The notes below the pieces were generated by a model, which saw only the letters and a program-made list of their open reading frames with translations, did not search any database and had not been told where the DNA came from. This document shows, one piece after another, positions 35,071 to 52,414 of a stretch of DNA of 58,210 nt (its first letter is position 1; the number at the start of each line of letters is the position of its first letter). The DNA is taken from the IMG/VR virus record IMGVR_UViG_3300007735_000763, positions 1 to 58,210 of that record. One strand, 5' to 3'. The position numbers and the translations under genes were made by a program. The DNA comes from a virus (taxonomy: Duplodnaviria; Caudoviricetes).

Positions 35071-36522
35071 ATGTCGAATATTTTCGAGTTGCCATTCCTG
35101 GCGAGATCGGTAGCTGATTTGCAGCGCGCGGATCGTCTCGCGAATCGGATCGTCGATTGTCTCGCGTCTCTCCAGGATGCGGACGACGATCGCGGTTATC
35201 TCCAGGCCGTTCGATTCTTTGGTCGTATGGTTCGAGCGTCGCTCGATCCCGAGCGCAGCGAGACCTCGCGCCCTTCCGACCTGGCGTTCGTCCAGGACGT
35301 GCTCGAGCGCGCGACCACTCGCGGGTTTTATGCTCCTGCGTTCGCCTACTCGTTTTCGCGAAAGTTGGCATTGGGCCAGGTTGTACGTCGGGTAAACGTC
35401 CAGGATCTAGTCGAGAGTCATTTCGAGAGTGCCGAGGGATCGGATCGGAACGCGATCATCGAGTTATGCGGCGAGCACCACTCGATCATGTTCTGCAATC
35501 ATTGCGACGAGCTGTTCGCCGACCAGGATCTTCAGCGGCGATACGGCGGCGGGTGGGTCTGCTCGAGCTGCCGTGAGGACGTCTTCCAATTCTCCGAGCG
35601 TTATGACGCCTGGGTGCATGATGACTGTGTTCGGGCGGCGCTCGATGAGGACGGAGATCGATGCATCATCGACGAGGACGATTCCGAGTTTCATTTCGAC
35701 GAGGAGCTCGACCAGTATGTGCATGATGATTACGAGCCGCCCTCGAGGTCAGTAATTCGGAACTACCATTCCTCGAAGCCGTTCTTTTCTGTCCGTCGCG
35801 ATACCTGGGTCGAGCAGCATCGGCGCGCCCTGGGAGTGGAGCTCGAGGTCGAGGGGTACTCCATCGATCCCGTCATCGCTGCGCGCGCGATCCACGATCA
35901 CGTCAACGGCGGCGAGTTCGGTCGTAATCTGTTCTTCGAGCGCGACGGCAGTTTGTCCAACGGGTTCGAGTTGATCTCGCAGCCTATGAGCGTGCCGGCG
36001 TTGCGCGAGACGTTCCAGTTCTTGCGTCAGCCTTCCCTGGTTCGAGGTCTCCGCAGTCATCGCACGACGACGTGCGGCCTCCATGTTCACGTCACCAGGG
36101 CGGGGCTCTCGAACCTCACGATCGCCAGGGCGGTGACGTTCGTAAACGATTCGGGGAATGATGCCTTCATCCAGGCATTGGCTCGACGTTACAACACGGG
36201 TTTCTGCAACATCCGAGATAAGGAGCTCGAGACCGCTCACCTGCCAGGGGATCGATACGAGGCGATCAATCTCACGGGGAGCGAGACGATCGAGTTCCGA
36301 ATCTTTCGCGGTTCGCTCAAGTATGAGGCCGTGATTGCTGCGATCGAGTTTTGTCATGCCCTGCTTGACTACTGCGCGCGACCGGAGACGGCGGCGGGGG
36401 GCTTGAATGCTCAAGCGTTTATTCGTTGGTGCGCGAACCATTTGGCCGACGAGACGGCGATCCTGCGGTCGTATGTGAACGATCGCATGGCAGGCCTGTT
36501 CCAACATTCTGAAGCGGCCTAA
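35071..36522 (+). CDS. putative amidoligase (COOH-NH2 ligase) with zinc-finger N-terminal region
   Basis: GVELEVE, DGSL..GFELISQP, CGLHVHV, RYEAIN, TIEFRIF. Confidence 0.88.
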   Translation: MSNIFELPFLARSVADLQRADRLANRIVDCLASLQDADDDRGYLQAVRFFGRMVRASLDPERSETSRPSDLAFVQDVLERATTRGFYAPAFAYSFSRKLALGQVVRRVNVQDLVESHFESAEGSDRNAIIELCGEHHSIMFCNHCDELFADQDLQRRYGGGWVCSSCREDVFQFSERYDAWVHDDCVRAALDEDGDRCIIDEDDSEFHFDEELDQYVHDDYEPPSRSVIRNYHSSKPFFSVRRDTWVEQHRRALGVELEVEGYSIDPVIAARAIHDHVNGGEFGRNLFFERDGSLSNGFELISQPMSVPALRETFQFLRQPSLVRGLRSHRTTTCGLHVHVTRAGLSNLTIARAVTFVNDSGNDAFIQALARRYNTGFCNIRDKELETAHLPGDRYEAINLTGSETIEFRIFRGSLKYEAVIAAIEFCHALLDYCARPETAAGGLNAQAFIRWCANHLADETAILRSYVNDRMAGLFQHSEAA

Positions 36523-38120: not shown

Positions 38121-38349
38121 CCTCGGTGGGGATTTCTTTGGTAATTCTTTGACGTACACCGGAGAATTCTTTGAGGGCGGCGGGCCAAAAAAATGGCCGG
38201 TTGTGTAAAGGCAAGGGCTAATGCCCGATTTCACACATTGGATTTCTGGCCAAAGAGAACCGGCCCAGGGGGAAGGAAAAAGTGCCCCCTTTGATTAACT
38301 TGTCAACTCGTGTAAAAATTTGTGCAAATTTCTACGCAACGGACTTCTG

Positions 38350-39813
38350 ATGAGCGCAGTTCCCCAAGACGTGGAGGCCGAACGGCTACGGCTGGAATAC
38401 CGGCTAATGCTTCTGGAAACCCAGGACAAGGCCCGGACCAACTTCATCGACTTTGTGCGGTACGTTTGGCCCGAGGCGATCCTGGGCGATCACCATCGGC
38501 GCATGGGGGCGGCCTTCGATCGGATCGCCAAGGGCAATCTGAAGCGGCTAATCATCAACATGCCGCCCCGTCATACAAAGTCCGAGTTTGCGTCCTACCT
38601 GTTGCCGGCCTTCCTGATGGGGCGCAAACCCCGTTTGCAGACGATCGAAGCGACGCACACAGCGGAACTGGCCGTTAAATTCGGCCGTAAAGTCCGCGAC
38701 CTGATGATGTCGGACCGTTATCGGGAGCTCTTTCCCCAGGTAGACCTGAAGCAGGACAGCAAGGCCGCCGGCCGGTGGGACACGAACCATGGCGGTAGCT
38801 ACTTCGCTGTCGGTGTGGGCGGTGCGGTCACCGGACGCGGTGCCGATTTGCTGATCATCGACGATCCGCATTCGGAGCAGGATGCGTATTCGGACCTTGC
38901 CTTGGACAACGCATGGGATTGGTATCAGGGCGGTCCGCGAACCCGTCTCCAGCCAGGAGGAGCCATTGTCATCGTCATGACCCGTTGGGGCACCAAAGAC
39001 CTGACGGCGCGCCTGCTTAAGGCGCAATCCAGTCACAACGCGGATAAGTGGGAGGTCATCGAGTTCCCGGCAATCCTGCCATCAGGCAATCCGCTTTGGC
39101 CGGAGTTCTGGTCCCTTGACGAACTAGAGGGGGTCAAGTCTTCGCTGTCGGTGCAGAAGTGGAACGCGATGTATCAGCAGCAGCCGACGAACGATGAGGG
39201 TGCAATCCTCAAGCGTGAGTGGTGGAAAGTCTGGCCTGAACCGCAGCCCCCGATCGTGAACTACATCATCCAAAGCTACGACACGGCGTATAGCAAAAAG
39301 GAAACTGCCGACTATAGCGTGATCACGACCTGGGGCGTGTTTTATCCTGGCGAAGACAGTGGGCCGAACATCATCCTGCTTGATGTCCTGCGTGGTCGGT
39401 GGGACTTTCCTGAACTAAAGCGAATTGCGAAGGAAGAGTACAACCGCTGGAACCCTGACAATGTGCTGATCGAGGCCAAGGCCACGGGCGTGACGTTGCA
39501 ACAAGAACTTCGTCGCGTCGGCATCCCCGTCACCATGTACACCCCTGGCGGACGCCGATCGGGCACCGATAAGGTCAGTCGCGCGAACGCGGTCGCCCCT
39601 GTGTTCGAGGCGGGGATGGTCTGGGCCCCGGACACCGATTGGGCGGAAGAGCTGATCGAGGAGTGCGCAGCGTTCCCGAACGGCGACAACGACGACATGG
39701 TGGACTCGACGACGCAGGCCATCATGCGTTTCCGTCAGGGCAACTTCATCAACCTTCAAACGGATTACAAGGAGATGCCGTCGGGAAGATCGCTTGCCCC
39801 TGAATACTATTGA
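38350..39813 (+). CDS. terL: terminase large subunit
   Basis: NMPPRHTKS Walker A, LLIIDDP Walker B, MTRW, SYDTA, DDMVDS nuclease motifs. Confidence 0.95.
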   Translation: MSAVPQDVEAERLRLEYRLMLLETQDKARTNFIDFVRYVWPEAILGDHHRRMGAAFDRIAKGNLKRLIINMPPRHTKSEFASYLLPAFLMGRKPRLQTIEATHTAELAVKFGRKVRDLMMSDRYRELFPQVDLKQDSKAAGRWDTNHGGSYFAVGVGGAVTGRGADLLIIDDPHSEQDAYSDLALDNAWDWYQGGPRTRLQPGGAIVIVMTRWGTKDLTARLLKAQSSHNADKWEVIEFPAILPSGNPLWPEFWSLDELEGVKSSLSVQKWNAMYQQQPTNDEGAILKREWWKVWPEPQPPIVNYIIQSYDTAYSKKETADYSVITTWGVFYPGEDSGPNIILLDVLRGRWDFPELKRIAKEEYNRWNPDNVLIEAKATGVTLQQELRRVGIPVTMYTPGGRRSGTDKVSRANAVAPVFEAGMVWAPDTDWAEELIEECAAFPNGDNDDMVDSTTQAIMRFRQGNFINLQTDYKEMPSGRSLAPEYY

Positions 39814-39853: not shown

Positions 39854-42445
39854 ATGGCAAGACGGGGCGACGAATTTGACGGAATGGACTCCGCGCAGGA
39901 GTTCACGGACGACACGTCTGCGGCGGATATGCTCTCGCAGTATTTTGGCAGAGTGCCTGAAGATACGCCCGCCGCTCCAGAAAACACGACTGCGCTTGAG
40001 CAATTGCAAGCGCTTGTGCAGATGGAGGAGCAGCGTCGTGCGGCCGAGGCGCAAGCGACACGGCCCATGGACCAGCCACAGCCTGCTGTCGACACCACGA
40101 TGCCCACAGGCGAATCAGTGCCTGTTGCGCCACAACCTGCTGCATCAAACCTTCCCCCTGGCGTCACCCAAGCAGATCTGGATGCGATTGCAGCAAGCTT
40201 TCGTGATGCGGGCTATGGTCCGAACAATAATATTTTAGGTCAGGGAATCAACCTCTCGGGGGTTGGTCTTGGCGGTAGCTACATGCCTGGCGGTCCGGCG
40301 CAGACGCCGACGCCCACGATCAATTTTACGGGCGATCCGAACCAGCCGTACTTTGACATGCGCACGCCGACAGGCGGCGTAGATCCCAAGTATTTTGTGC
40401 CGGGGCTTACGAGTCCTTCTGTCAACACCGTGGGCCCAACGGACCGTGGCGTTCCTCAGCGCCGGGAAAACGAATGCCCGCCGGGGCTGGAGTACAGTTA
40501 CGAGCTTGGCCGTTGCGTGCGCCCGGAGACTATCGAGCCACCGCCACCTCCACCCCCACCGCCTCCCCCCCCTCCTCCACCCCCGCCGCCACCGCCTCCT
40601 CCCCCGCCGATCAAGTGCGATCCGGGGTATATCTACAATCCTGAGACGCGGCAGTGCGAGAAGGAGATTGTTACTCCTCCGCCTCCTCCGAAGGATTGCC
40701 CGCCAGGACTTGTGAGAGACCCGGCGTCTGGGCTGTGCGTGCCACCGCCTCCTCCCCCGCCGCCTCCGCCTCCCCCGCCGCCTCCGCCACCACCTGGTGA
40801 CGACTGTCTACCGGGCAATCGGCGTGATCCGGTGACGGGCAAGTGCATGCCTATTTGTGGGCCTGGATCCGTATACGATCCGGCGACGGGCAAGTGCGTG
40901 CCTATAACTCCACCGCCCCCGCCTCCACCCCCGCCACCGCCTCCCACGGAGTGCCAGCCGGGATATGAACGCAACGCAGCAGGGCAGTGTGTGCCGATCC
41001 GTCTTGACCCCTGTCAGCCGGGCTATGTACGCAGCACGGTAACGGGTAAGTGTGAGCCAATCACCATAACGCCCCCGCCTCCGCCGCCCCCACCGCCCCC
41101 CGGACCGACACAGCCGCCTACCCCGCCTCCGGGCGTAATCCAGCCGTTCGATCCGTCGGCCGCGATGCTTGCGGCGTACAGGAGGATGTTCGGCACGGGA
41201 GCCGTGAACCTTGGGCGGTCGGACGCGACTGGTGGTGGCACGCCCACGTCCCCGTTGGTCAGCACCACAGGGGTTGGAGCGCCCACTCCGGGCACTGGGA
41301 CTGCGAGGTCTCCTGTTCCGTTGCCGGGGTTCCAGAACGTGACGTTCACGCCTGGCCAGCCGCAATTCTTTGGGAATGTCCCAGGAGCCATGCTCCCCGG
41401 CACGTTGCCCTCAAACTACAACCCGATTAGCAATTACAAGGGACCGTTAGCCACGGACGTTTTGGCGCAGAACCCGAACCTGAGTCCGACGATTCTCGGC
41501 GGCTTGCAGGGGCTGGGGTATTACACGGATCGTTTGGGCAATCGGATCTTTGCGCCGGGCGGGGCCTTTGCAAATCCTGTCAGGGCCTTTGCCGATGGCG
41601 GTGAGGCGGACAAAGACGAAGCATCGGCAACGTCCGCACAAGCCGAACTTCGTGCGCTGCTTGACGCCATGCCTGCTGAGACGGAGACGGAGGTGTCGGT
41701 CTCCCCGACCTCTCGCTCTGTTCGTAAGACAAAGAAAAAGGCTGTGGACACGGGCAAGGCCAAGGGCATCTCCATGAGCCTTGAAGAGTCGATGGCGAGC
41801 ATTGAGCCGCCAAGCCGCGCCTCGGCCCGTGATCAGTTAGCCGCGCTCATGCGACGCAATCGCGGTCTTGTGGCGAAGACGTTCAGTACGCCGACGCTCG
41901 ATCGTGCAAGCCTCGCGGCTCGCGGACCACTGACCACGAAGCGATTCCAGGATGGCGGTGAGGTGGACGACAGCACCCCGTTGCAGCGTCGTATCTACAT
42001 GGAATCCGTCAGCGATCCTGCCAAGCGCACTGCGCCGATCACTGAGAAAAGCATGTCGGCCAAGGAGCTGGATAAACTTCGGACGTTGATTGAGATCGCC
42101 GAAGCCAATCCTTCTCTTAGCGAAAAGACAGGCAAGCCCTTGCCTGGCGTTGTCGACTACGCGCATCAGCGGATGTTGATGGAGAAGGTAGACCCGATGG
42201 GCAGCCTTCCGATCTCCATGCGCGATTCGGATTACAACGCGTTGGAGTCGGGCAATCTGCGTAACACGCTCGGGCAGTTTACGTTTGAGCGATTGCCGGA
42301 TGGATCGTTGGTCGTGAAGGACACGTACGATTACACCGGAGACGTAGGCGCCAGGTTTAATCCGTTGATTCAATACGCGAATAAGGTCGGTGTGAATCGT
42401 CCAGTCAGGATCGCACTGCCGCCCAAGAGCACGAAGAAGAGGTAG
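39854..42445 (+). CDS. polyproline / Cys-repeat protein, putative virion cargo
   Basis: Seven CxPG-x8/9-C repeats with poly-Pro tracts; FADGG and FQDGG motifs precede a globular C-terminus. Confidence 0.8.
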   Translation: MARRGDEFDGMDSAQEFTDDTSAADMLSQYFGRVPEDTPAAPENTTALEQLQALVQMEEQRRAAEAQATRPMDQPQPAVDTTMPTGESVPVAPQPAASNLPPGVTQADLDAIAASFRDAGYGPNNNILGQGINLSGVGLGGSYMPGGPAQTPTPTINFTGDPNQPYFDMRTPTGGVDPKYFVPGLTSPSVNTVGPTDRGVPQRRENECPPGLEYSYELGRCVRPETIEPPPPPPPPPPPPPPPPPPPPPPPPIKCDPGYIYNPETRQCEKEIVTPPPPPKDCPPGLVRDPASGLCVPPPPPPPPPPPPPPPPPPGDDCLPGNRRDPVTGKCMPICGPGSVYDPATGKCVPITPPPPPPPPPPPPTECQPGYERNAAGQCVPIRLDPCQPGYVRSTVTGKCEPITITPPPPPPPPPPGPTQPPTPPPGVIQPFDPSAAMLAAYRRMFGTGAVNLGRSDATGGGTPTSPLVSTTGVGAPTPGTGTARSPVPLPGFQNVTFTPGQPQFFGNVPGAMLPGTLPSNYNPISNYKGPLATDVLAQNPNLSPTILGGLQGLGYYTDRLGNRIFAPGGAFANPVRAFADGGEADKDEASATSAQAELRALLDAMPAETETEVSVSPTSRSVRKTKKKAVDTGKAKGISMSLEESMASIEPPSRASARDQLAALMRRNRGLVAKTFSTPTLDRASLAARGPLTTKRFQDGGEVDDSTPLQRRIYMESVSDPAKRTAPITEKSMSAKELDKLRTLIEIAEANPSLSEKTGKPLPGVVDYAHQRMLMEKVDPMGSLPISMRDSDYNALESGNLRNTLGQFTFERLPDGSLVVKDTYDYTGDVGARFNPLIQYANKVGVNRPVRIALPPKSTKKR

Positions 42446-42447
42446 TC

Positions 42448-44511
42448 ATGGCCTCGAAGGAAGAACTGCGCAAGCTGATGCTTGCGATGAACCCTGACGC
42501 GGAGCAGATCGAGGAAGCGGCGGCCGCTGCACCCCGTGTTCCGGGCGCGGCCAAGGCACTTGGTAAGGGCTTTTACGAGGCCAATGTGGAGCCTTTGTTA
42601 TCGCCAAGAGAAACCGCGATGGCGATCTTTGGGGCGGGCCAGGAGTTTGTGCGCGACCCGAAGGAGTTCTCGAAGAGCGTAGCAAGGTCGGAGATGGAGC
42701 GGCTGAAGGCCGCAGGCGAGACGCCTGAGGCGGGGGCCGAGTACTACGGCGGGATGTTGAGTCCGTTCAGTCTATTCCGTCGGTTGCCCAAGACTGAAGT
42801 TGTACGGCCCAAGGGCCAGGGCGTTGTGCTTGATTACCCGGACGCCCCGTTGGTAGCCATGGGGGACAAGAACACCACGTTGGATGAGCGTTATGGCAGC
42901 ACTCGTTATCCAAAGGGGTTTGTCAATCGAACCATTGAAGACGGAAAAGCTAGGGTAACTGCTTTAGTAGAACGCGAAGCGTTGGATGCTGATAAGACCA
43001 CAGCGATTAACAATTTCCTTGACACCAAAGTACGTAATTACTTTGTCAATCAATTTGGCACCAAAGACGACCCCATCTTCAAGGCTATCAAAGAGGGGCG
43101 CTTATCGAGCGTTAGACTCAAAGAGCCTGGCGGCATACGCGAGTATCTCCCTGTGGCAGCGAGGGAGGGAAAGACGCGCGTCAATCCTGAAACAAAAGAG
43201 TCGGTCTTTTATCCAACTAGCAGCGCACAGGCTGCACTTGAGGATATCAACAAGATCTACGACGAGCTGACCAACATGCGTGGGACGGTCATTGCTAACA
43301 GAACGGTTGGCAAGCCCGAGAACGAGTTTGCGCTTCTTGACCAAGAGCGCCCGAAAGCGCAGCAGTTGCTTGACGAAACCACACAAGCGCTTCTTGACGA
43401 ACGAAATGCGGCGTATGAGATCAACCCTTCCGTAGGCATACTAGGGTACAAAGATCCGGCATTTGCCAGTAAGGCCAAGCCAAGCAGGAAGCTATTGAAT
43501 GTCTTGCCTGAGCGCGGACGTCAAAGACGTACTGTTGCTGCGGAAGATCTGGACGCGTTGATGTTGGCACAAGACCCAAACATGCCGAAGTCCATAAAGA
43601 CAGCCATTGAAAAAGGGCAGCCCATCTATGACATGAATCCCAGGGGCGCCCTTGGCGACATCCTGAACACGGAGGTGTTAGTCAACTACTTGGCTACGCT
43701 TCCTACGCGCGAGATCAAGAACCTACGATATGAAGACGCCGTTCGTGGGGCCGTGAAACTAGATGAACTCACAACGGAACGTAATGCAGTTATCGCGCGC
43801 GTGCGCGAGGGCAAGCCTGTTGACAAGAAGGTTTTCCTAGAAGGCGTAAGCCAGCCGATCATTAGCTACGGCAAAGAAAGCGCCTTTCCTGGATTCACTT
43901 GGCGTCAGATAACCGATCCCGAAGCAACTACCCTTGAGGGCGCGTATATCGGGCATTCCGTGGGCGGATACGCTAAAGAAGGCGGGTACGGCCCCGAACG
44001 ATATAAGGCGTTTTTGTCCGGCAAAAACAAAGTCTATTCGCTAAGAGATGCCGAAGGCCGACCCGTTACAACGATAGAGACCATGGAAGTTCCAGAGCGT
44101 GGAACGATTGTGACGCAGGTCAAAGGCGCAGGTAGCAAGACTGGGAACTCTGGCGACAAGACTCCCTACGATCCGTTGCTGGTAGATTTCTTCAACAAAA
44201 TAAACGCTGCGGCAATCACTGAGTCAGACACTTATCTGCCTCCCTTATCGCGAGAGTACAAGCAGCAAAGAGGCAATCCTGTTCCCAGCAGACTTTCGGC
44301 CAGGGTTGGCGCGCCGCAGCCCATTGGACGTCCTGCGCCAGCAGAGCCGCCTGTACCCCAACAGGTCCCGCCTGCTCCGGCACAACAAGGCATTGGCCAA
44401 CTACCGCAGGCTCCGCAAAATCCCCCTCGCCAAGCGTTCCGTAACATGGACGATGCGACCTTCTTGCGGTTCCTAAGAAGACTGCGCGGAATGCCAGAAG
44501 GCGAAGAGTAA
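42448..44511 (+). CDS. putative cargo protein: shared N-terminal leader plus PcfJ-like domain
   Basis: EGAYIGHSVGGY...VYSLRDAEGRPVTTIE...QVKG; N-terminus paralogous to next gene. Confidence 0.7.
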   Translation: MASKEELRKLMLAMNPDAEQIEEAAAAAPRVPGAAKALGKGFYEANVEPLLSPRETAMAIFGAGQEFVRDPKEFSKSVARSEMERLKAAGETPEAGAEYYGGMLSPFSLFRRLPKTEVVRPKGQGVVLDYPDAPLVAMGDKNTTLDERYGSTRYPKGFVNRTIEDGKARVTALVEREALDADKTTAINNFLDTKVRNYFVNQFGTKDDPIFKAIKEGRLSSVRLKEPGGIREYLPVAAREGKTRVNPETKESVFYPTSSAQAALEDINKIYDELTNMRGTVIANRTVGKPENEFALLDQERPKAQQLLDETTQALLDERNAAYEINPSVGILGYKDPAFASKAKPSRKLLNVLPERGRQRRTVAAEDLDALMLAQDPNMPKSIKTAIEKGQPIYDMNPRGALGDILNTEVLVNYLATLPTREIKNLRYEDAVRGAVKLDELTTERNAVIARVREGKPVDKKVFLEGVSQPIISYGKESAFPGFTWRQITDPEATTLEGAYIGHSVGGYAKEGGYGPERYKAFLSGKNKVYSLRDAEGRPVTTIETMEVPERGTIVTQVKGAGSKTGNSGDKTPYDPLLVDFFNKINAAAITESDTYLPPLSREYKQQRGNPVPSRLSARVGAPQPIGRPAPAEPPVPQQVPPAPAQQGIGQLPQAPQNPPRQAFRNMDDATFLRFLRRLRGMPEGEE

Positions 44512-45465
44512 ATGGCCGCCTCTCGAGAAGATCTTCGCAAGCTGATCTTGGCCATGAACCCCGATGCGCAAAACATCGAGGAAGCCGCAGCAGCCGCGCC
44601 CCGCGTGCCTAAGATGGCCAAGGCGTTTGGGCGAGGGTTCTACGAGGCCAACGTCGCCCCATTACTGTCTCCATACGAGACGGCGACGGCGATCTTTGGC
44701 ACAGGCAAAGAGATGGCCCGTGCGCCGGTAGAGACGACCAAGAGCATGGCGCGATCGGAGCTTGAGCGATTGCAGCAAGCCGAGCGCAGTCCAGAGGCTG
44801 CCGCCGAGTATGCGGGCGGAATGTTCAGTCCGTTTAGCATGCTCCGTCGTGCGCCAACCATGCGTGAGATCACCGCCTATCAGGGCTCGCCGGCGAAGTT
44901 TGAGCCGACCCCAGACAACCCGCTTGGCGAGTTTGACATCACCAAAGCGGGCAGTGGCGTGGGCCAGCAAAACAGAGGCCCCGGCACCTACATCGCTGAG
45001 AACCCAAAGGTTGCAAACCGATATCGTATTGCCCCCGGCAGCACAGATCCCAAGAAGGGATTTATGTACACGGTCGATCTGCCTGATCCGATGATTGAGA
45101 AGATGATTGACCTTGATGCGCCGATCATGAATCAGCCAAAGATCCGTGAGACGCTTTTGAAGATCGCGGACGACGACGTGCTGCCGCCAGAGAGCGCACA
45201 GTATCTGCGATACATGCTGACGAGCCAGGACAAAGCATTGCAAAAGTACCCGCTTACGGGTCTCGGTTTGGTTTCTGTGCCGCGTGAGTTTGGCGGCATC
45301 TTCAAAGACGTTACCGAAGCCAATGCGGTTCTTCAGCGTTATGGCATTCCAGGCTCGAAGTGGAAGGACGACATCTCGCGTGGCCCGGACAAAGGCACGC
45401 GTAACTTCGTGGTATTCCCTGGGGAAGAGAAAAAGGTCAAGATCCTGAAGCGCGAAGGCAGGTAG
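44512..45465 (+). CDS. putative cargo protein: shared N-terminal leader plus ADP-ribosyltransferase-like (ART-PolyVal-type) domain
   Basis: AYQGSP..F...FD....GSG.G.Q..GPGTYIAENPKVA..Y...GTRNFVVF. Confidence 0.65.
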   Translation: MAASREDLRKLILAMNPDAQNIEEAAAAAPRVPKMAKAFGRGFYEANVAPLLSPYETATAIFGTGKEMARAPVETTKSMARSELERLQQAERSPEAAAEYAGGMFSPFSMLRRAPTMREITAYQGSPAKFEPTPDNPLGEFDITKAGSGVGQQNRGPGTYIAENPKVANRYRIAPGSTDPKKGFMYTVDLPDPMIEKMIDLDAPIMNQPKIRETLLKIADDDVLPPESAQYLRYMLTSQDKALQKYPLTGLGLVSVPREFGGIFKDVTEANAVLQRYGIPGSKWKDDISRGPDKGTRNFVVFPGEEKKVKILKREGR

Positions 45466-45497: not shown

Positions 45498-47816
45498 ATG
45501 CCAATTGACAAAGCTATCAACCAGGCCCCGGACGCCGGCATTCTGGTCATCGCAGAGGAATCTGCCCCAATGCCGGACGTGGAGATTGTCCTGGACGCTG
45601 ACGGTAGTGCGGTCATAGAGATTGGCGAGCAGGAAGCGAAGGAAGTCGACTTCTACGCGAACCTTGCGGAGGTCATTGAGCCGGAGGCGTTGTCCAGGAT
45701 TGCTCTGGACGTGTCCGCGATGTTCGAGGCGGACAAGGGTTCGCGTTCGGATTGGGAGCAGATGTATGCCAAGGGGCTGGATCTGCTGGGCTTGCGCATG
45801 GAAGAGCGCACCAAACCCTTCCGTGGAGCGGCTGGCGCGGCCCATCCGATGCTCCAAGAGGCGATCATCCAGTTCCAGGCGCAGGCTTTTCGTGAGTTGA
45901 TGCCCGCAGGCGGCCCTGTTCGCACGCAGATCCTGGGCAAGGAGACCGTGGACAAGTTCCAGCAGGCCTCGCGCGTGCAGGATTTCATGAATTATCAGAT
46001 CACGACGGTGATGGAAGAGTACACACCGGAGTTCGATCAGCTCCTGTACTACACCGGATATGGCGGATCGACGTTCAAGAAGGTCTATTACGACGCTTCG
46101 CTCGGTCGGATGGTCTCCAAACTGTGTTTGGCGGACGATGTTTACATCCCGTACAACGGTTCGAGCGTCGTTTCGCAGTGTCCGAGGCTCACTCACCGCA
46201 TTGCGATGGACTCCAACGAGTTCAGAAAGCGTGTGGTGGCCGGCGAATACCTCGATGTACCGGTTGATTTGGAGCCAACGCCCGCAGATCCGAGCCAAAT
46301 CCAGGCTGCGATCGACAAAGTAGTCGGAATCCAGCCCACGGACTCGGCGGGCGAGGTGTTTTTGCTCGAAATGTTGGTCGATTTAGACATTCCGGGCTTT
46401 GAAGACAAGGACGACAGCGGCAATCCGACCAAAATTAAGCTGCCGTACGTGGTGACGCTGGCTGAAGACACGTTAAAAGTCATTGGCGTGCGTCGAAACT
46501 GGAAGGAAGACGACAAACTCAAGCGTCGGCGCAACTATTACGTGCACTACGTGCTCGTCGAAGGCCCTGGCGCGTACGGTCTGGGCTTTGTGCACCTGAT
46601 CGGTGGTCTTTCCAAGGCCGCGACGACGGCTTTGCGGCAGTTGATTGACGCGGGAACGCTTGCCAACCTGCCTGCGGGCTTCAAGGCACGCGGCGCGCGG
46701 ATCGCGGACGATTCTGACCCGATCCAACCTGGCGAGTGGCGCGACATCGAGGTAGGCGGCGCGGAGATTTCTTCGTCCTTGCTGCCGTTGCCGTACAAAG
46801 AGCCGAGTCAGGTGCTCTTTGCGCTGCTTGGATTCCTCGTAGACGCCGGCAAGCGGCTCTCGAGCACCGCTGACATGCAGGTCGGCGACGGAAATCAGTA
46901 CGCACAGGTCGGCACGACGCTTGCGCTCCTCGAGCGTGGCTCGATGGTGATGTCGGCGATCCATAAGCGACTGCACTACGCACAGTCGCTGGAGTTTCGG
47001 CTGCTGGCCGAGGGCTTTGGCGAGTATCTGCCGGATGAGTACCCGTACGAAGTGCCGGGTGCGAGCCGAAAGATCAAACGGGTCGACTTCAACAACATGG
47101 TGGCGGTGCTGCCAGTTGCCGATCCCAACATTTTCAGCAGCGCGCAGCGTATTCAGCTTGCCCAGATGCAGTTGCAGATGGCGCAGAGCGCCCCGCAGAT
47201 GCACAACATCTACGAGGCGTACTACCGCGTGTACTCTGCGCTCAACGTGCGCGACATTGACGGCATTCTCTTGCCGCAACACACGCAGATGCCGAAGGAT
47301 CCGGCGAGTGAGAACGCATCCGTACTTAACAGCATGCAGCTCAAGGCCTTTGCCGGCCAGCAGCACGATGCGCATATCGCTACGCACTTGATGATGGGGC
47401 TTTCGCCGATCCTCCAGGGCAACCCGATGGCGGCAATGGTGCTTCAGCAGCACATTCTTGATCACGTGCGTTTGAAGGCCGAGGAAGACGTCGAAGCGGA
47501 TCTCTTCAAACTGTACGGTACGGATCCCGATCGCATGGTCTCGCAGATCCAAAAGGAAGGCATGGTTGCGATCAAGGTCGCGCAGTACATGCAAGAGGTT
47601 CGCAGCCTACAGGATCAACTCTCGGGTGCGGGAGCCGGGGCAGAAGACCCGTTGGTCGCGCTTAAGGAGAAGGAAATCGAGCAGCGCGCGCAGGCGGAGC
47701 AGGCGAAGATCCAGCTTAACCAGCAGAAGTTGCAGCTTGAGCAGCAGAAGCTCCAGCAGTCGACGCAGATTGATCAACAACGCCTGCGATTGCAGGCCGC
47801 TAGAGGAGGACGTTGA
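45498..47816 (+). CDS. portal protein
   Basis: 772 aa; HPML.EA..QFQAQA, GSTFKKVYYD, LRQLIDAGTLANLP, VGTTLAL; C-terminal coiled coil. Confidence 0.9.
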   Translation: MPIDKAINQAPDAGILVIAEESAPMPDVEIVLDADGSAVIEIGEQEAKEVDFYANLAEVIEPEALSRIALDVSAMFEADKGSRSDWEQMYAKGLDLLGLRMEERTKPFRGAAGAAHPMLQEAIIQFQAQAFRELMPAGGPVRTQILGKETVDKFQQASRVQDFMNYQITTVMEEYTPEFDQLLYYTGYGGSTFKKVYYDASLGRMVSKLCLADDVYIPYNGSSVVSQCPRLTHRIAMDSNEFRKRVVAGEYLDVPVDLEPTPADPSQIQAAIDKVVGIQPTDSAGEVFLLEMLVDLDIPGFEDKDDSGNPTKIKLPYVVTLAEDTLKVIGVRRNWKEDDKLKRRRNYYVHYVLVEGPGAYGLGFVHLIGGLSKAATTALRQLIDAGTLANLPAGFKARGARIADDSDPIQPGEWRDIEVGGAEISSSLLPLPYKEPSQVLFALLGFLVDAGKRLSSTADMQVGDGNQYAQVGTTLALLERGSMVMSAIHKRLHYAQSLEFRLLAEGFGEYLPDEYPYEVPGASRKIKRVDFNNMVAVLPVADPNIFSSAQRIQLAQMQLQMAQSAPQMHNIYEAYYRVYSALNVRDIDGILLPQHTQMPKDPASENASVLNSMQLKAFAGQQHDAHIATHLMMGLSPILQGNPMAAMVLQQHILDHVRLKAEEDVEADLFKLYGTDPDRMVSQIQKEGMVAIKVAQYMQEVRSLQDQLSGAGAGAEDPLVALKEKEIEQRAQAEQAKIQLNQQKLQLEQQKLQQSTQIDQQRLRLQAARGGR

Positions 47817-48329: not shown

Positions 48330-48797
48330 ATGAACGTAGAAGCTAAAAAGCTGACTGCTTTGGAAGAAAAGTGGCAGCAGGAGATCGCCGCAAAAGTGCC
48401 GTCGCTTGAAGACGCGTACACCACAGAGGGTCTAAAGCCCGAGAACCTTGACGCTTCCGTCGTCGACCGCATTCCCACACCGACCGGCTGGCGCATCGCC
48501 ATCCTGCCGTACCGTGGGGCTGAGAAGACCAAAGGCGGCATCGCTCTGGCCGAGGAAACGCAGCGCAAGCAGCAGTTGACGACTGTGTGCGGCTACGTGC
48601 TCAAGGTAGGTCCGGTGGCGTATGCCGATGAGGGTAAGTTCCCGACCGGCCCGTGGTGCAAGCAGGGTGATTGGATCATCTTTGGTCGTTATGCCGGCGC
48701 GCGGATTCCGATCGATGGCGGAGAGATCCGGTTGATTAACGACGATGAGGTCTTGGGGATCGTGAACGATCCTGAAGACGTCCTCCACATGTGGTAA
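48330..48797 (+). CDS. groES: co-chaperonin GroES (Cpn10)
   Basis: PTGWRIAI, EKTKGGIAL, VLKVGP, GDWIIFGRYAG, INDDEVLGIV. Confidence 0.9.
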   Translation: MNVEAKKLTALEEKWQQEIAAKVPSLEDAYTTEGLKPENLDASVVDRIPTPTGWRIAILPYRGAEKTKGGIALAEETQRKQQLTTVCGYVLKVGPVAYADEGKFPTGPWCKQGDWIIFGRYAGARIPIDGGEIRLINDDEVLGIVNDPEDVLHMW

Positions 48798-50833: not shown

Positions 50834-51742
50834 ATGGCTATTTCACGTGCACAACTTGTTAAGGAGCTGGAGCCGGGCTTGAACGCCCTGTTCGGCCTCG
50901 AGTACAAGAACTACGAAAACGAGCACGCCGAGATTTACTCGGTGGAGACCTCGGATCGTGCGTTCGAGGAAGAGGTGATGGAGTCCGGCTTTGCCGAGGC
51001 TCCGGTGAAGACGGAAGGCGCTGGCGTTGCATACGACCAGGCTCAGGAAGTCTACACTGCTCGCTACACCCACGAGACGATCGCTCTCGCGTTCTCGCTC
51101 ACCGAAGAAGCCGTTGAGGACAACCTCTACGACCGTCTCTCGGCGCGTTACACGAGGGCGCTTGCTCGTTCCATGGCTCAGACGAAGCAGATCAAGGCGG
51201 CCAGCGTGCTTAACGGCGCGTTCACGACCTCCCTTGGTGGCGACGGCAAGCCGCTTTGCGCAGATGACCACCCGACTTTGACGGGTCCAAATCTGGCGAA
51301 CGAGCTGGCCACCGCAGCGGATCTGAGCGAGACCTCCCTCGAGCAGGCTCTGATCGACATCGCCAAGTTCACCGATGAGCGTGGCCTGAAGATCGCTGTT
51401 CAGGGCTTGAAGCTCGTCATCCCGAAGGAACTCATGTTTACGGCTGATCGTATCCTCAAGTCGACGCTTCGTACGGCGACGGCGGATAACGACATCAACG
51501 CTGTCAAGAACATGGGCATGGTGCCGCAGGGCTACACCGTGAACCACTTCCTGACCGACCCGGACGCTTGGTTTATCAAGACCGACGCTCCGAACGGCAT
51601 GAAGATGTTCCAGCGTGTATCCATCAAGACTGGTTTCGAGGGCGACTTCGACACCGGCAACGTGCGGTACAAGGCTCGCGAGCGCTACAGCTTCGGCTTC
51701 AGCGACCCGCGTGGCATCTTCGGATCGCCCGGCGCTGCTTAA
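50834..51742 (+). CDS. major capsid protein
   Basis: MAISRAQLVKELEPGLNALFG...GDFDTGNVRYKARERYSFG.SDPRG; strong codon bias; terminator follows. Confidence 0.92.
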   Translation: MAISRAQLVKELEPGLNALFGLEYKNYENEHAEIYSVETSDRAFEEEVMESGFAEAPVKTEGAGVAYDQAQEVYTARYTHETIALAFSLTEEAVEDNLYDRLSARYTRALARSMAQTKQIKAASVLNGAFTTSLGGDGKPLCADDHPTLTGPNLANELATAADLSETSLEQALIDIAKFTDERGLKIAVQGLKLVIPKELMFTADRILKSTLRTATADNDINAVKNMGMVPQGYTVNHFLTDPDAWFIKTDAPNGMKMFQRVSIKTGFEGDFDTGNVRYKARERYSFGFSDPRGIFGSPGAA

Positions 51743-51755
51743 TCAGCAGACAAGC

Positions 51756-51783
51756 AAGGGGGCCGCAAGGCCCCCTTTCTTTT
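51756..51783 (+). terminator. Rho-independent terminator
   Basis: AAGGGGGCC-GCAA-GGCCCCCTT then T-rich tail. Confidence 0.85.
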
Positions 51784-51823
51784 GCCTATAGACTGGCATA
51801 GAGTTCGTCCACGGGGGTTGTTC

Positions 51824-52414
51824 GTGCCATACGCGCAAGACGTCATTGGGATATACAAGATCGTCAACAAGGCGACGAATGCCTGTTATGTTGGGCAATC
51901 CCAGTGCGTTAAAAAGCGCATAAAAGAACATTTCCGGCTACTGCGTTGGAATAAGCATCCAAACGTCAAGCTCCAGAATGCTTACAACAAGTACGGTGCC
52001 CAGAATTTCGTTTGGGAACTTGAGGTGGTGTGCGAGGACACAGAGGACTTGGACAAGCTCGAAGAGGCTTTTCTGTCCAAGCAGGCGTGGTTTGACGAGC
52101 CCACCATCTACAACATTGCCGATTTTGCCAAGGCCCCGATGCGCAATCGCCAGCATTCCGAAGAGGTGCGTGAGCGGATTCGCATCGGCCGTCGAGCCTC
52201 GACGTTTGATTACCGCTCAGAGGGCTACAAGAAACGCTTGTCTGAGGCACACCAAGAGCGGTGGTTTTCTGATCCTGAGTTCATTGCAAAACTCAAGTAC
52301 ATAGTTGACAATCCAGACATGACGTATGCCGAGCGCGCGCGTGTTCTGGGCAAGGACATCTCGTCCACTCGTAGACTTGCGCTCAAATATCAGCATTTAA
52401 AAGGAGTTTTATAA
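51824..52414 (+). CDS. free-standing GIY-YIG homing endonuclease
   Basis: GIYKIVN....YVGQS....R...H..L....H.N..LQ.AYNKYG; NUMOD3-like HSEEVRERI; start uncertain. Confidence 0.85.
   Translation: MPYAQDVIGIYKIVNKATNACYVGQSQCVKKRIKEHFRLLRWNKHPNVKLQNAYNKYGAQNFVWELEVVCEDTEDLDKLEEAFLSKQAWFDEPTIYNIADFAKAPMRNRQHSEEVRERIRIGRRASTFDYRSEGYKKRLSEAHQERWFSDPEFIAKLKYIVDNPDMTYAERARVLGKDISSTRRLALKYQHLKGVL

Follow-up and report, generated by a model that had tools for sequence, protein, structure and literature searches.

What does a segment of about 116 residues contribute when it stands at the head of two adjacent phage proteins that have nothing else in common? The question is raised by the region between the large terminase gene (TerL) and the portal gene of a 58,210-bp DNA that constitutes a single IMG/VR virus record, with an estimated completeness of ~95%; we refer to this whole stretch as the window. 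All of the genes concerned lie on the + strand. TerL (38320..39813; PHROG 38, E 1e-114; Pfam Terminase_6C and Terminase_6N) and the portal (45498..47816; PHROG 1216, E 2.5e-35) form the left and right borders of a variable interval that contains three open reading frames (ORFs): P863 (863 aa; 39854..42445), ORF A (687 aa; 42448..44511), situated between P863 and ORF B, and ORF B (317 aa; 44512..45465), situated between ORF A and the portal. We propose that the segment common to A and B, referred to below as the shared module, would act as a non-MuF incorporation adaptor for split, virion-delivered cargo, a reading to which we give a probability of about one half.

In the mechanism that we envisage, the TerL–portal interval would encode a hypervariable set of polyvalent proteins that is packed in the head and delivered with the DNA. 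Most relatives make this set as one giant mosaic protein, whereas the window has it divided over P863, A and B, three ORFs that would be translationally coupled. The predicted helical module on A and B would then be a portable incorporation adaptor, by means of which cargo that has lost its covalent link to the giant protein could still join an internal, pre-ejectosome-like assembly of the virion. Behind the adaptor would stand exchangeable enzyme-like domains, namely a PcfJ homologue (Cys replaced by Ser) in A and an ADP-ribosyltransferase (ART) fold resembling ART-PolyVal (His replaced by Gln) in B. On this proposal A and B would be packaged, would dock to a partner within the head and be ejected from it, and might have enzymatic activity in the host.

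The module copies occupy 42448..42795 in A (~116 aa) and 44512..44862 in B (~117 aa). BLASTP aligns the two N-termini with 86 identities in 136 positions (E 3e-48), and amino acid identity is 70% over 117 columns; the similarity stops near residue 116, beyond which the two proteins are unrelated. The initial annotation, which was made from sequence alone, had placed between TerL and the portal two tandem proteins with an alignable N-terminus followed by abrupt divergence, and both the position, with ORF coordinates exactly as claimed, and the pattern are borne out. Over the 116 shared codons nucleotide identity is 67%, the proportion of synonymous differences (pS) is 0.725, which is saturated, the corresponding nonsynonymous proportion (pN) is 0.21, and the ratio of nonsynonymous to synonymous rates (dN/dS) is ~0.1. 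Because synonymous sites are saturated and dN/dS is this low, the two copies are an old duplicate under purifying selection, and neither a chance resemblance nor a recent repeat. When the genome was searched against itself only A and B were found, with no third copy of the module in the window. A and B, module included, have no match in Pfam (LPD families included) at E <= 0.1 and none to a PHROG family, in agreement with the earlier description of the leader as non-MuF.

Comparison of the interval among relatives provides the main argument. A portal-based scan of IMG/VR returned at least 594 relatives; 80 loci were retained, and among 83 loci (these 80 together with L001, L002 and the window) TerL and portal are both present on the fragment in 33. 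In these 33, window included, the interval is hypervariable, ranging from 871 to 6132 bp, and 24 loci have one ORF there (264–2016 aa), 7 have two and 2 have three. The ORFs are mosaics, within which segments of P863 and the whole of the A-type module recur. A Pfam scan covered 40 of the 44 interval ORFs, the remaining four being window A and B, scanned separately, and the 83- and 85-aa ORFs of L067; it detected DUF6973 in 8, CBM_14 in 4, Zeta_toxin, ART-PolyVal and DUF4214 in 2 each, LPD23 in 1, and others. If a polyvalent protein is taken as one with two or more unrelated effector-type domains encoded beside the portal and terminase genes, the single ORFs of the relatives, up to 2016 aa in length, belong to this class; each window ORF bears one recognizable effector-like domain, and the window therefore holds the split form. 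The pair first described as a two-gene cargo system is thus real, but it is part of a larger hypervariable locus that includes P863 and is usually one giant ORF.

A hidden Markov model (HMM) of the shared module, built from the B family, matches 6 of the 44 interval ORFs: window A, window B, the B-type gene of L001 and the A-type genes of L019, L020 and L021. Expressed by position, the matches amount to 6 among 10 downstream ORFs and to none among 33 first ORFs. The A-type module is found as a separate ORF equipped with the putative adaptor in four loci, and as the adaptor-less C-terminus of a giant ORF in six (L028, L031, L037, L039, L052 and L070). It is this distribution, with the shared module present on detached A and absent from fused A, that argues most strongly that the module supplies something that a detached piece needs.

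The cargo is dispensable in this group of phages, because A is missing from L001 and L002 (90% portal identity to the window), the interval of pelagiphage HTVC023P contains a single 201-aa gene, and L022 has a remnant only. The latter is a 56-aa ORF (L022:5049-5219) between a P863-like gene and the portal, which consists of a pre-sequence and the first ~20 residues of the module, followed by a stop, and it has the look of a scar left by deletion of the cargo genes.

We next consider what stands behind the module. Residues 1–116 of A used as a query found 24 proteins of 377–1203 aa, and a two-sequence module profile compared with 1.84 billion representatives gave 18 at E <= 1e-3, among which P0196 and P0198, both long tandem-repeat proteins, were judged to be spurious. 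The module is borne by 71 of 205 proteins (203 fetched, plus window A and B), and the tails of the 70 that extend for at least 60 aa cluster into at least seven unrelated classes; as the proteins were fetched with A and B as queries the sample is biased, such that the number of classes is a lower bound and their proportions are meaningless. The tails are the B core; the B core plus a true ART-PolyVal domain (P0003 and P0007; E 1e-19); a true ART-PolyVal domain directly after the module (P0020, and P0018, which is a deletion variant); the A-type module; a true PcfJ module (P0185; 31.8 bits against a gathering cut-off of 25); LPD23 with a zincin-like domain (P0188); and tails without a Pfam match (the P0187 group, with P0194, P0199, P0200, P0201 and P0203), of which that of P0201 looks ParB-like by eye. 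The leader does, then, carry different C-termini, as had been supposed. For B a correction applies: in the B family of over 1,200 proteins the module and the ART core are conserved together, and it is further C-terminal additions that vary. Distant B-type proteins retain only the second half of the module (~residues 54–116) and the ART core, to which GNAT or other C-terminal domains are added.

Structure prediction bears on how the module might work. In AlphaFold2 (AF2) models it is helical by DSSP in both proteins, without a confident fold, and the predicted local distance difference test score (pLDDT) is below 50 at residues 1–79 and 92–116 of A and at residues 1–118 of B. Helices of such low confidence in both models would be expected if the segment takes up its fold only as part of an assembly. 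The same long, non-globular helices would also suit a different role, in which the module is a working part of the ejection machinery itself, either a helix that forms or lines a channel or a binder of DNA or membrane after ejection, and the enzyme-like tails are the add-ons. [quoted passage not shown] This layout, with a helical N-terminal 92 of 380 residues, resembles that of B-type proteins of 380–420 aa, and conservation of the second half of the module across more than 1,200 proteins would fit such a part. We nevertheless consider a structural role of this kind unlikely: the close relatives L022, L025, L027 and HTVC023P have no module-bearing gene, which means that the module cannot be structurally indispensable in this lineage, and it has no sequence similarity to gp29 (hhalign E 0.98). 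Two other approaches did not enter into this assessment. An ESM Atlas search with the module as query returned unnamed viral clusters at 0.90 and, nearest among the named ones, a domain of P22 gp16 at 0.83, which is chance level and was not used, and a prediction of a complex between the portal (26-row alignment) and the module (residues 1–118), run with no controls, scored 0.00, from which we conclude nothing.

Another reading, less probable still, is that the module has no addressing role at all, but derives from a stretch between domains of a giant ancestral polyvalent protein, which happened to coincide with the break points, was spread by recombination and has been selectively kept. Such an origin would account for the fused proteins P0128, P0186, P0158, P0189 and P0197, in which the module is internal, so that the term leader, correct for its N-terminal position on A and B, does not extend to fused forms; it would also be compatible with a locus that is a recombination mosaic and with deletion variants such as P0018. 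What speaks for an addressing adaptor over such a linker is that both copies evolve at a dN/dS of ~0.1, that the module is found with at least seven classes of tail, and that none of the 24 single giant ORFs examined contains it, which rules it out as a general linker of these proteins. Finally, a MuF-like polymorphic toxin system, with lethal toxins and cognate immunity serving competition between bacteria or prophages, is most improbable. The locus family does include ART-fold and Zeta-toxin domains, but a MuF domain is missing, the genome encodes a set of replication proteins (DNA polymerase, primase and helicases), window B and window A carry substitutions of the catalytic His and Cys, respectively, and the spacing of the ORFs leaves no room for immunity genes.

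The lack of immunity ORFs, pointed out in the initial annotation, follows from the spacing of the genes. The ATG of ORF A is 2 nt past the stop codon (TAG) of P863, and the stop of ORF A (TAA) is followed immediately, in the same frame, by the ATG of ORF B, leaving intergenic gaps of 2 and 0 nt and no ORF between A and B. An A–B fusion produced by read-through of the stop was rejected as the main form, as the TAA abuts an ATG; it is also disfavored by the separate calling of A-type and B-type proteins on independent contigs (P0121–P0127 and P0001–P0010).

Several observations weigh against the adaptor proposal. No confident fold is predicted for the module, nor was a relative of known function detected, and the window type of module is rare (the 18 of 1.84 billion representatives noted above). 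Since the 24 single giant ORFs do without it, it cannot be a general incorporation signal of the locus. Broad conservation is limited to its second half (~54–116), and the B-type proteins of L001 and L002 differ over their first ~85 residues, notwithstanding the close relationship of the portals. As the module and the ART core are conserved jointly in the B family, the module could simply be the N-terminal domain of B, acquired by A through recombination. The role of B as enzymatic cargo is doubtful, given that it lacks the strand-1 His and that its strand-5 acid was not placed. Lastly, the presence of A and B in virions is something that we infer, the indirect pointers being genomic position, the match of the B fold to A4 gp27, and an association with SLT or phage lysozyme domains, A-type modules also forming the ends of proteins that bear these.

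Beyond the module, protein A has three parts. The middle region (residues ~117–386; 42796..43605) is alpha/beta, with AF2 pLDDT mostly >80 and no assigned function, and it is kept in 61 relatives, including the C-terminal parts of proteins of 800–1185 aa with SLT or DUF6973. It is followed by a domain homologous to PcfJ (residues 387–614; 43606..44289) and by a disordered tail rich in proline and glutamine (44290..44511), with pLDDT <50 over residues 613–660; the model as a whole is confident over residues 120–610. The PcfJ assignment comes from profile comparison. The A family aligns with the 825-aa 'PcfJ-like protein' of phage DSL-LC04, itself a match to PF14284 at 36.5 bits (gathering cut-off 25), with an hhalign probability of 99.4% (E 4.5e-21), and with the PcfJ-positive P0185 with a probability of 99.8%; the match to DSL-LC04 is confined to the PcfJ part, A 387–614, and does not involve the module. 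A itself falls below the PF14284 cut-off, with no hit at E <= 0.1, and one of the 61 A-family members matches that family (1.4e-4). Where P0185 and DSL-LC04 have HCVGGY, A has GHSVGGY (residues 502–508), in which H503, S504, V505, G506 and G507 are invariant in the 61 relatives. A PcfJ-like end with HSV in place of HCV, as read originally from the window, is therefore confirmed, and Ser replaces Cys throughout the A family (n=61). Residues 468–623 also resemble the GNAT fold, though weakly, at Z 6–7.7. The A family profile gave helical-bundle noise only when compared with PDB sequences, and tblastn of A against 50,697 phage records found no match at 1e-3.

The core of protein B (44863..45465) has an ART fold that is distantly related to ART-PolyVal, and the AF2 model is confident from residue 120 on. 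For residues 114–317 of B the best VIA-align match is to residues 1418–1604 of PDB 9k3a chain B (Z 10.6, root-mean-square deviation 4.3, 162 residues aligned), which by length and residue numbering is the A4 ejection protein gp27 (1717 aa); further matches are to the diphtheria-toxin homologue 7rb4 (Z 8.4), diphtheria toxin (~8) and tankyrase (~7.4). Foldseek also supports an ADP-ribosyltransferase fold, with E 3.3e-3 and a probability of 0.99. At the level of sequence B is more remote: it has no hit to PF18760 (ART-PolyVal) at E <= 0.1 and does not reach the gathering cut-off of 31.2 bits, its family profile has 0 hits among PDB sequences at E <= 1, and tblastn against the 50,697 phage records gave weak matches only, to MetMV and phiGT1. 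The B family numbers at least 1,239 proteins, of which 118 aligned members were used for residue counts; 38 of these 118 match PF18760 at E <= 0.01, two of them via an extra, true domain.

The active site of ART-PolyVal is composed of His in strand 1, Tyr in strand 2 and Asp in strand 5, as given in the text of Iyer et al. 2017 (PMC5512222). B has Y123-Q124-G125, so that Gln124 takes the place of the strand-1 His, just as the initial annotation had read it (YQG where YHG is usual); of the 118 aligned members, 89 have His here and 29 have Gln. Tyr160 is kept in B and is invariant (118/118). The strand-5 acid of B was not placed, because the local HMM alignment to true ART-PolyVal domains is too weak past the first 34 residues. 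With the strand-1 His replaced and the strand-5 acid not placed, B may be inactive or altered as an enzyme. The first ~34 residues of the core (B 120–153; YHGTPxxFEPTxxNPLGEF...) are highly conserved, with relatives in L011–L013, P0018 and P0020, and this stretch precedes ART domains that are otherwise different (E 5.9e-20 in L011), as if it marked a recombination junction.

The same gene order recurs in other lineages. TerL, a B-type gene and the portal follow one another in L003 and L008, where TerL and portal belong to different PHROG families. A relative of the B core, gp5 of Sulfitobacter phage phiGT1, is encoded just after the portal, and in Methanosarcina virus MetMV a B-core relative lies within a giant protein. 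In L003, which represents an unrelated lineage, two ART-type proteins flank TerL (L003:1226-2080 and L003:4019-5200) and have in common a 22-aa N-terminal motif (RIAAALEYLG..R; 14 of 22 identical, E 1e-4, hhalign probability 82%); the partner upstream of TerL is a true ART-PolyVal protein (40.5 bits), and the arrangement parallels the shared N-terminus in the window. As regards A4, comparison of the B family with gp27 by hhalign is not significant (E 0.19), nor is that with gp29, and for this reason the link between the B core and gp27 is one of fold. In the gp27 of L098 (Anabaena phage A-4L), residues ~1418–1604 form an ART-fold domain with LYHGT...GSGTYF. The string 'ADP-ribosyl' has 0 occurrences in the main text of the A4 structure paper (PMC12002296).

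Two short motifs in these proteins are candidates for processing. A-x-G-G-[ED], mostly in the form F/M-A-x-G-G-E and typically F-A-x-G-G-E, occurs 42 times in interval ORFs (L001, L019–L097 and the window), against 4.9 +/- 2.3 expected from shuffling, with a maximum of 11 in 200 shuffles, an enrichment of about eight-fold, and it may be a processing or docking site. G-S/G-P-x-x-G-E is found upstream of the first conserved residues of the module in 11 of 11 proteins in which the module begins more than 25 residues from the start (P0006, P0123, P0128, P0131, P0156–P0158, P0186, P0189, P0197 and P0199), ten of these having been caught by a regular expression and the one-residue-shorter form of P0006 read by eye. 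The distance is ~5–10 residues in nine and ~40–55 in P0131 and P0158, and several of these proteins open with the short pre-sequence MARTKITDLKVRPRYRAAGSPKGGE. No prohead protease was recognized among the 25 window ORFs compared with PHROGs, a set that covers the head region, TerL through capsid gene. Speculatively, cleavage at the motif during maturation would leave fused and split forms with the same mature N-terminus. By analogy with MuF and with the capsid targeting sequence of T4, we can tentatively go a step further than the adaptor itself: the module might be an undescribed portable docking domain, used by phages akin to the HTVC023P type for splitting a giant ejection or polyvalent protein into exchangeable cargo, and cleavage at A-x-G-G/S-(P-x-x-G)-E might give a shared mature N-terminus beginning EELRKLMLAMNPDA. 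We hold this extended version to be possible rather than probable.

The first interval gene, P863, is the first piece of the split polyvalent protein. It contains long pure polyproline runs between small Cys-containing units (CPPG...C..P) that are CBM_14-like (Peritrophin-A, chitin-binding; E 1.3e-8), and has an FADGGE motif at residue 580. Residues 700–863 constitute a conserved C-terminal domain, which in P0158 and P0189 immediately precedes the module within one fused protein.

We regard the phage as related to HTVC023P-type podophages on account of its portal, which shares 75% identity with the DSL-LC04 portal, 47% with the HTVC023P one and 42% with the one from roseophage CRP-901. A GroES-like co-chaperonin gene (48330-48797; PHROG 3188, E 1.9e-17) is located directly after the portal, a position at which one is also annotated in DSL-LC04 and HTVC023P. 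The head module continues with the major capsid protein gene (50834-51742), directly after which there is a homing-endonuclease-like ORF (51782-52414; PHROGs 314 and 7168, E ~1e-23) where DSL-LC04 has a cement-protein gene. Upstream of TerL, a 483-aa ORF (35071-36522) has an amidoligase-like region (PHROGs 16683 and 2443).

Relatives of the HTVC023P type are common in aquatic viromes, as the portal relatives in IMG/VR indicate, and what non-DNA material these phages inject is the question that an adaptor would address. The text of the article on HTVC023P-type genomics (PMC9599517; supplements outside scope) does not contain portal, internal virion, hypervariable, ADP-ribosyl or polyvalent, and a literature search for ART-PolyVal found no phage paper. 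Should the module prove to be a true adaptor, it would be a sequence handle for listing the injected effectors of uncultured phages, a natural example of giant polyvalent proteins broken into exchangeable units, and a candidate tag with which foreign proteins could be loaded into podophage capsids. The match between the B core and gp27 points, in addition, to an ART-fold domain within a solved pre-ejectosome.

It remains to compare the locus with known systems. Polyvalent proteins (Iyer, Burroughs, Anand, de Souza and Aravind 2017, J Bacteriol; PMC5512222) are the nearest: the text of that article describes unrelated effector-like domains (ART, GNAT, ParB-like, zincin, LPD) in phage proteins encoded beside the portal and terminase genes and predicted to be packed and injected, and it lists ART plus GNAT proteins such as BAR32501, which B-type proteins with GNAT resemble. 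Relatives of the present locus, being single giant proteins with ART-PolyVal, Zeta_toxin or LPD23, are of the same kind, whereas the window differs in its split into three ORFs, the two downstream ones bearing an unannotated 116-aa module; a term search of that article (supplements outside scope) found no such adaptor.

The A4 pre-ejectosome proteins gp26–gp29 (PDB 9K3A/9K2V; PMC12002296) are similar in two respects, in that the best match of the ART-like core of B is to gp27 1418–1604 and in that, according to the main text, a helical N-terminal segment of gp29 docks at the portal barrel ahead of a larger unresolved body. They differ in having no significant sequence similarity to the window proteins and in the position of their genes, which in A4 are downstream of those for the tail tube rather than in the TerL–portal interval. 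With the PcfJ-like proteins (PF14284) the window shares, through DSL-LC04, the same slot in the order TerL, PcfJ-like gene, portal, as well as the homology over A 387–614, but A is below the Pfam threshold with Ser for the motif Cys, and the DSL-LC04 protein is a single ORF.

MuF (SPP1 gp7/Mu gp30) fusions and polymorphic toxins likewise place a head-module segment before exchangeable effector domains; the window has neither a MuF domain nor immunity genes, and its genes are upstream, not downstream, of the portal. The T4 capsid targeting sequence (Alt and the internal proteins) offers the parallel of an N-terminal element common to different head-packed proteins. It is ~10 residues long and is removed by the prohead protease. 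The window module, in contrast, is ~116 aa, and the window ORFs scanned include no recognized prohead protease. T4 Alt is itself an ADP-ribosyltransferase, according to the text of PMC5512222. What is already known, then, is that head modules encode polyvalent and effector proteins, carried by MuF or portal fusions; what is new, within a limited search of the literature without supplements, is the unannotated putative adaptor, together with the split architecture, the way in which it correlates with gene fission, and its occurrence within an abundant group of aquatic phages.

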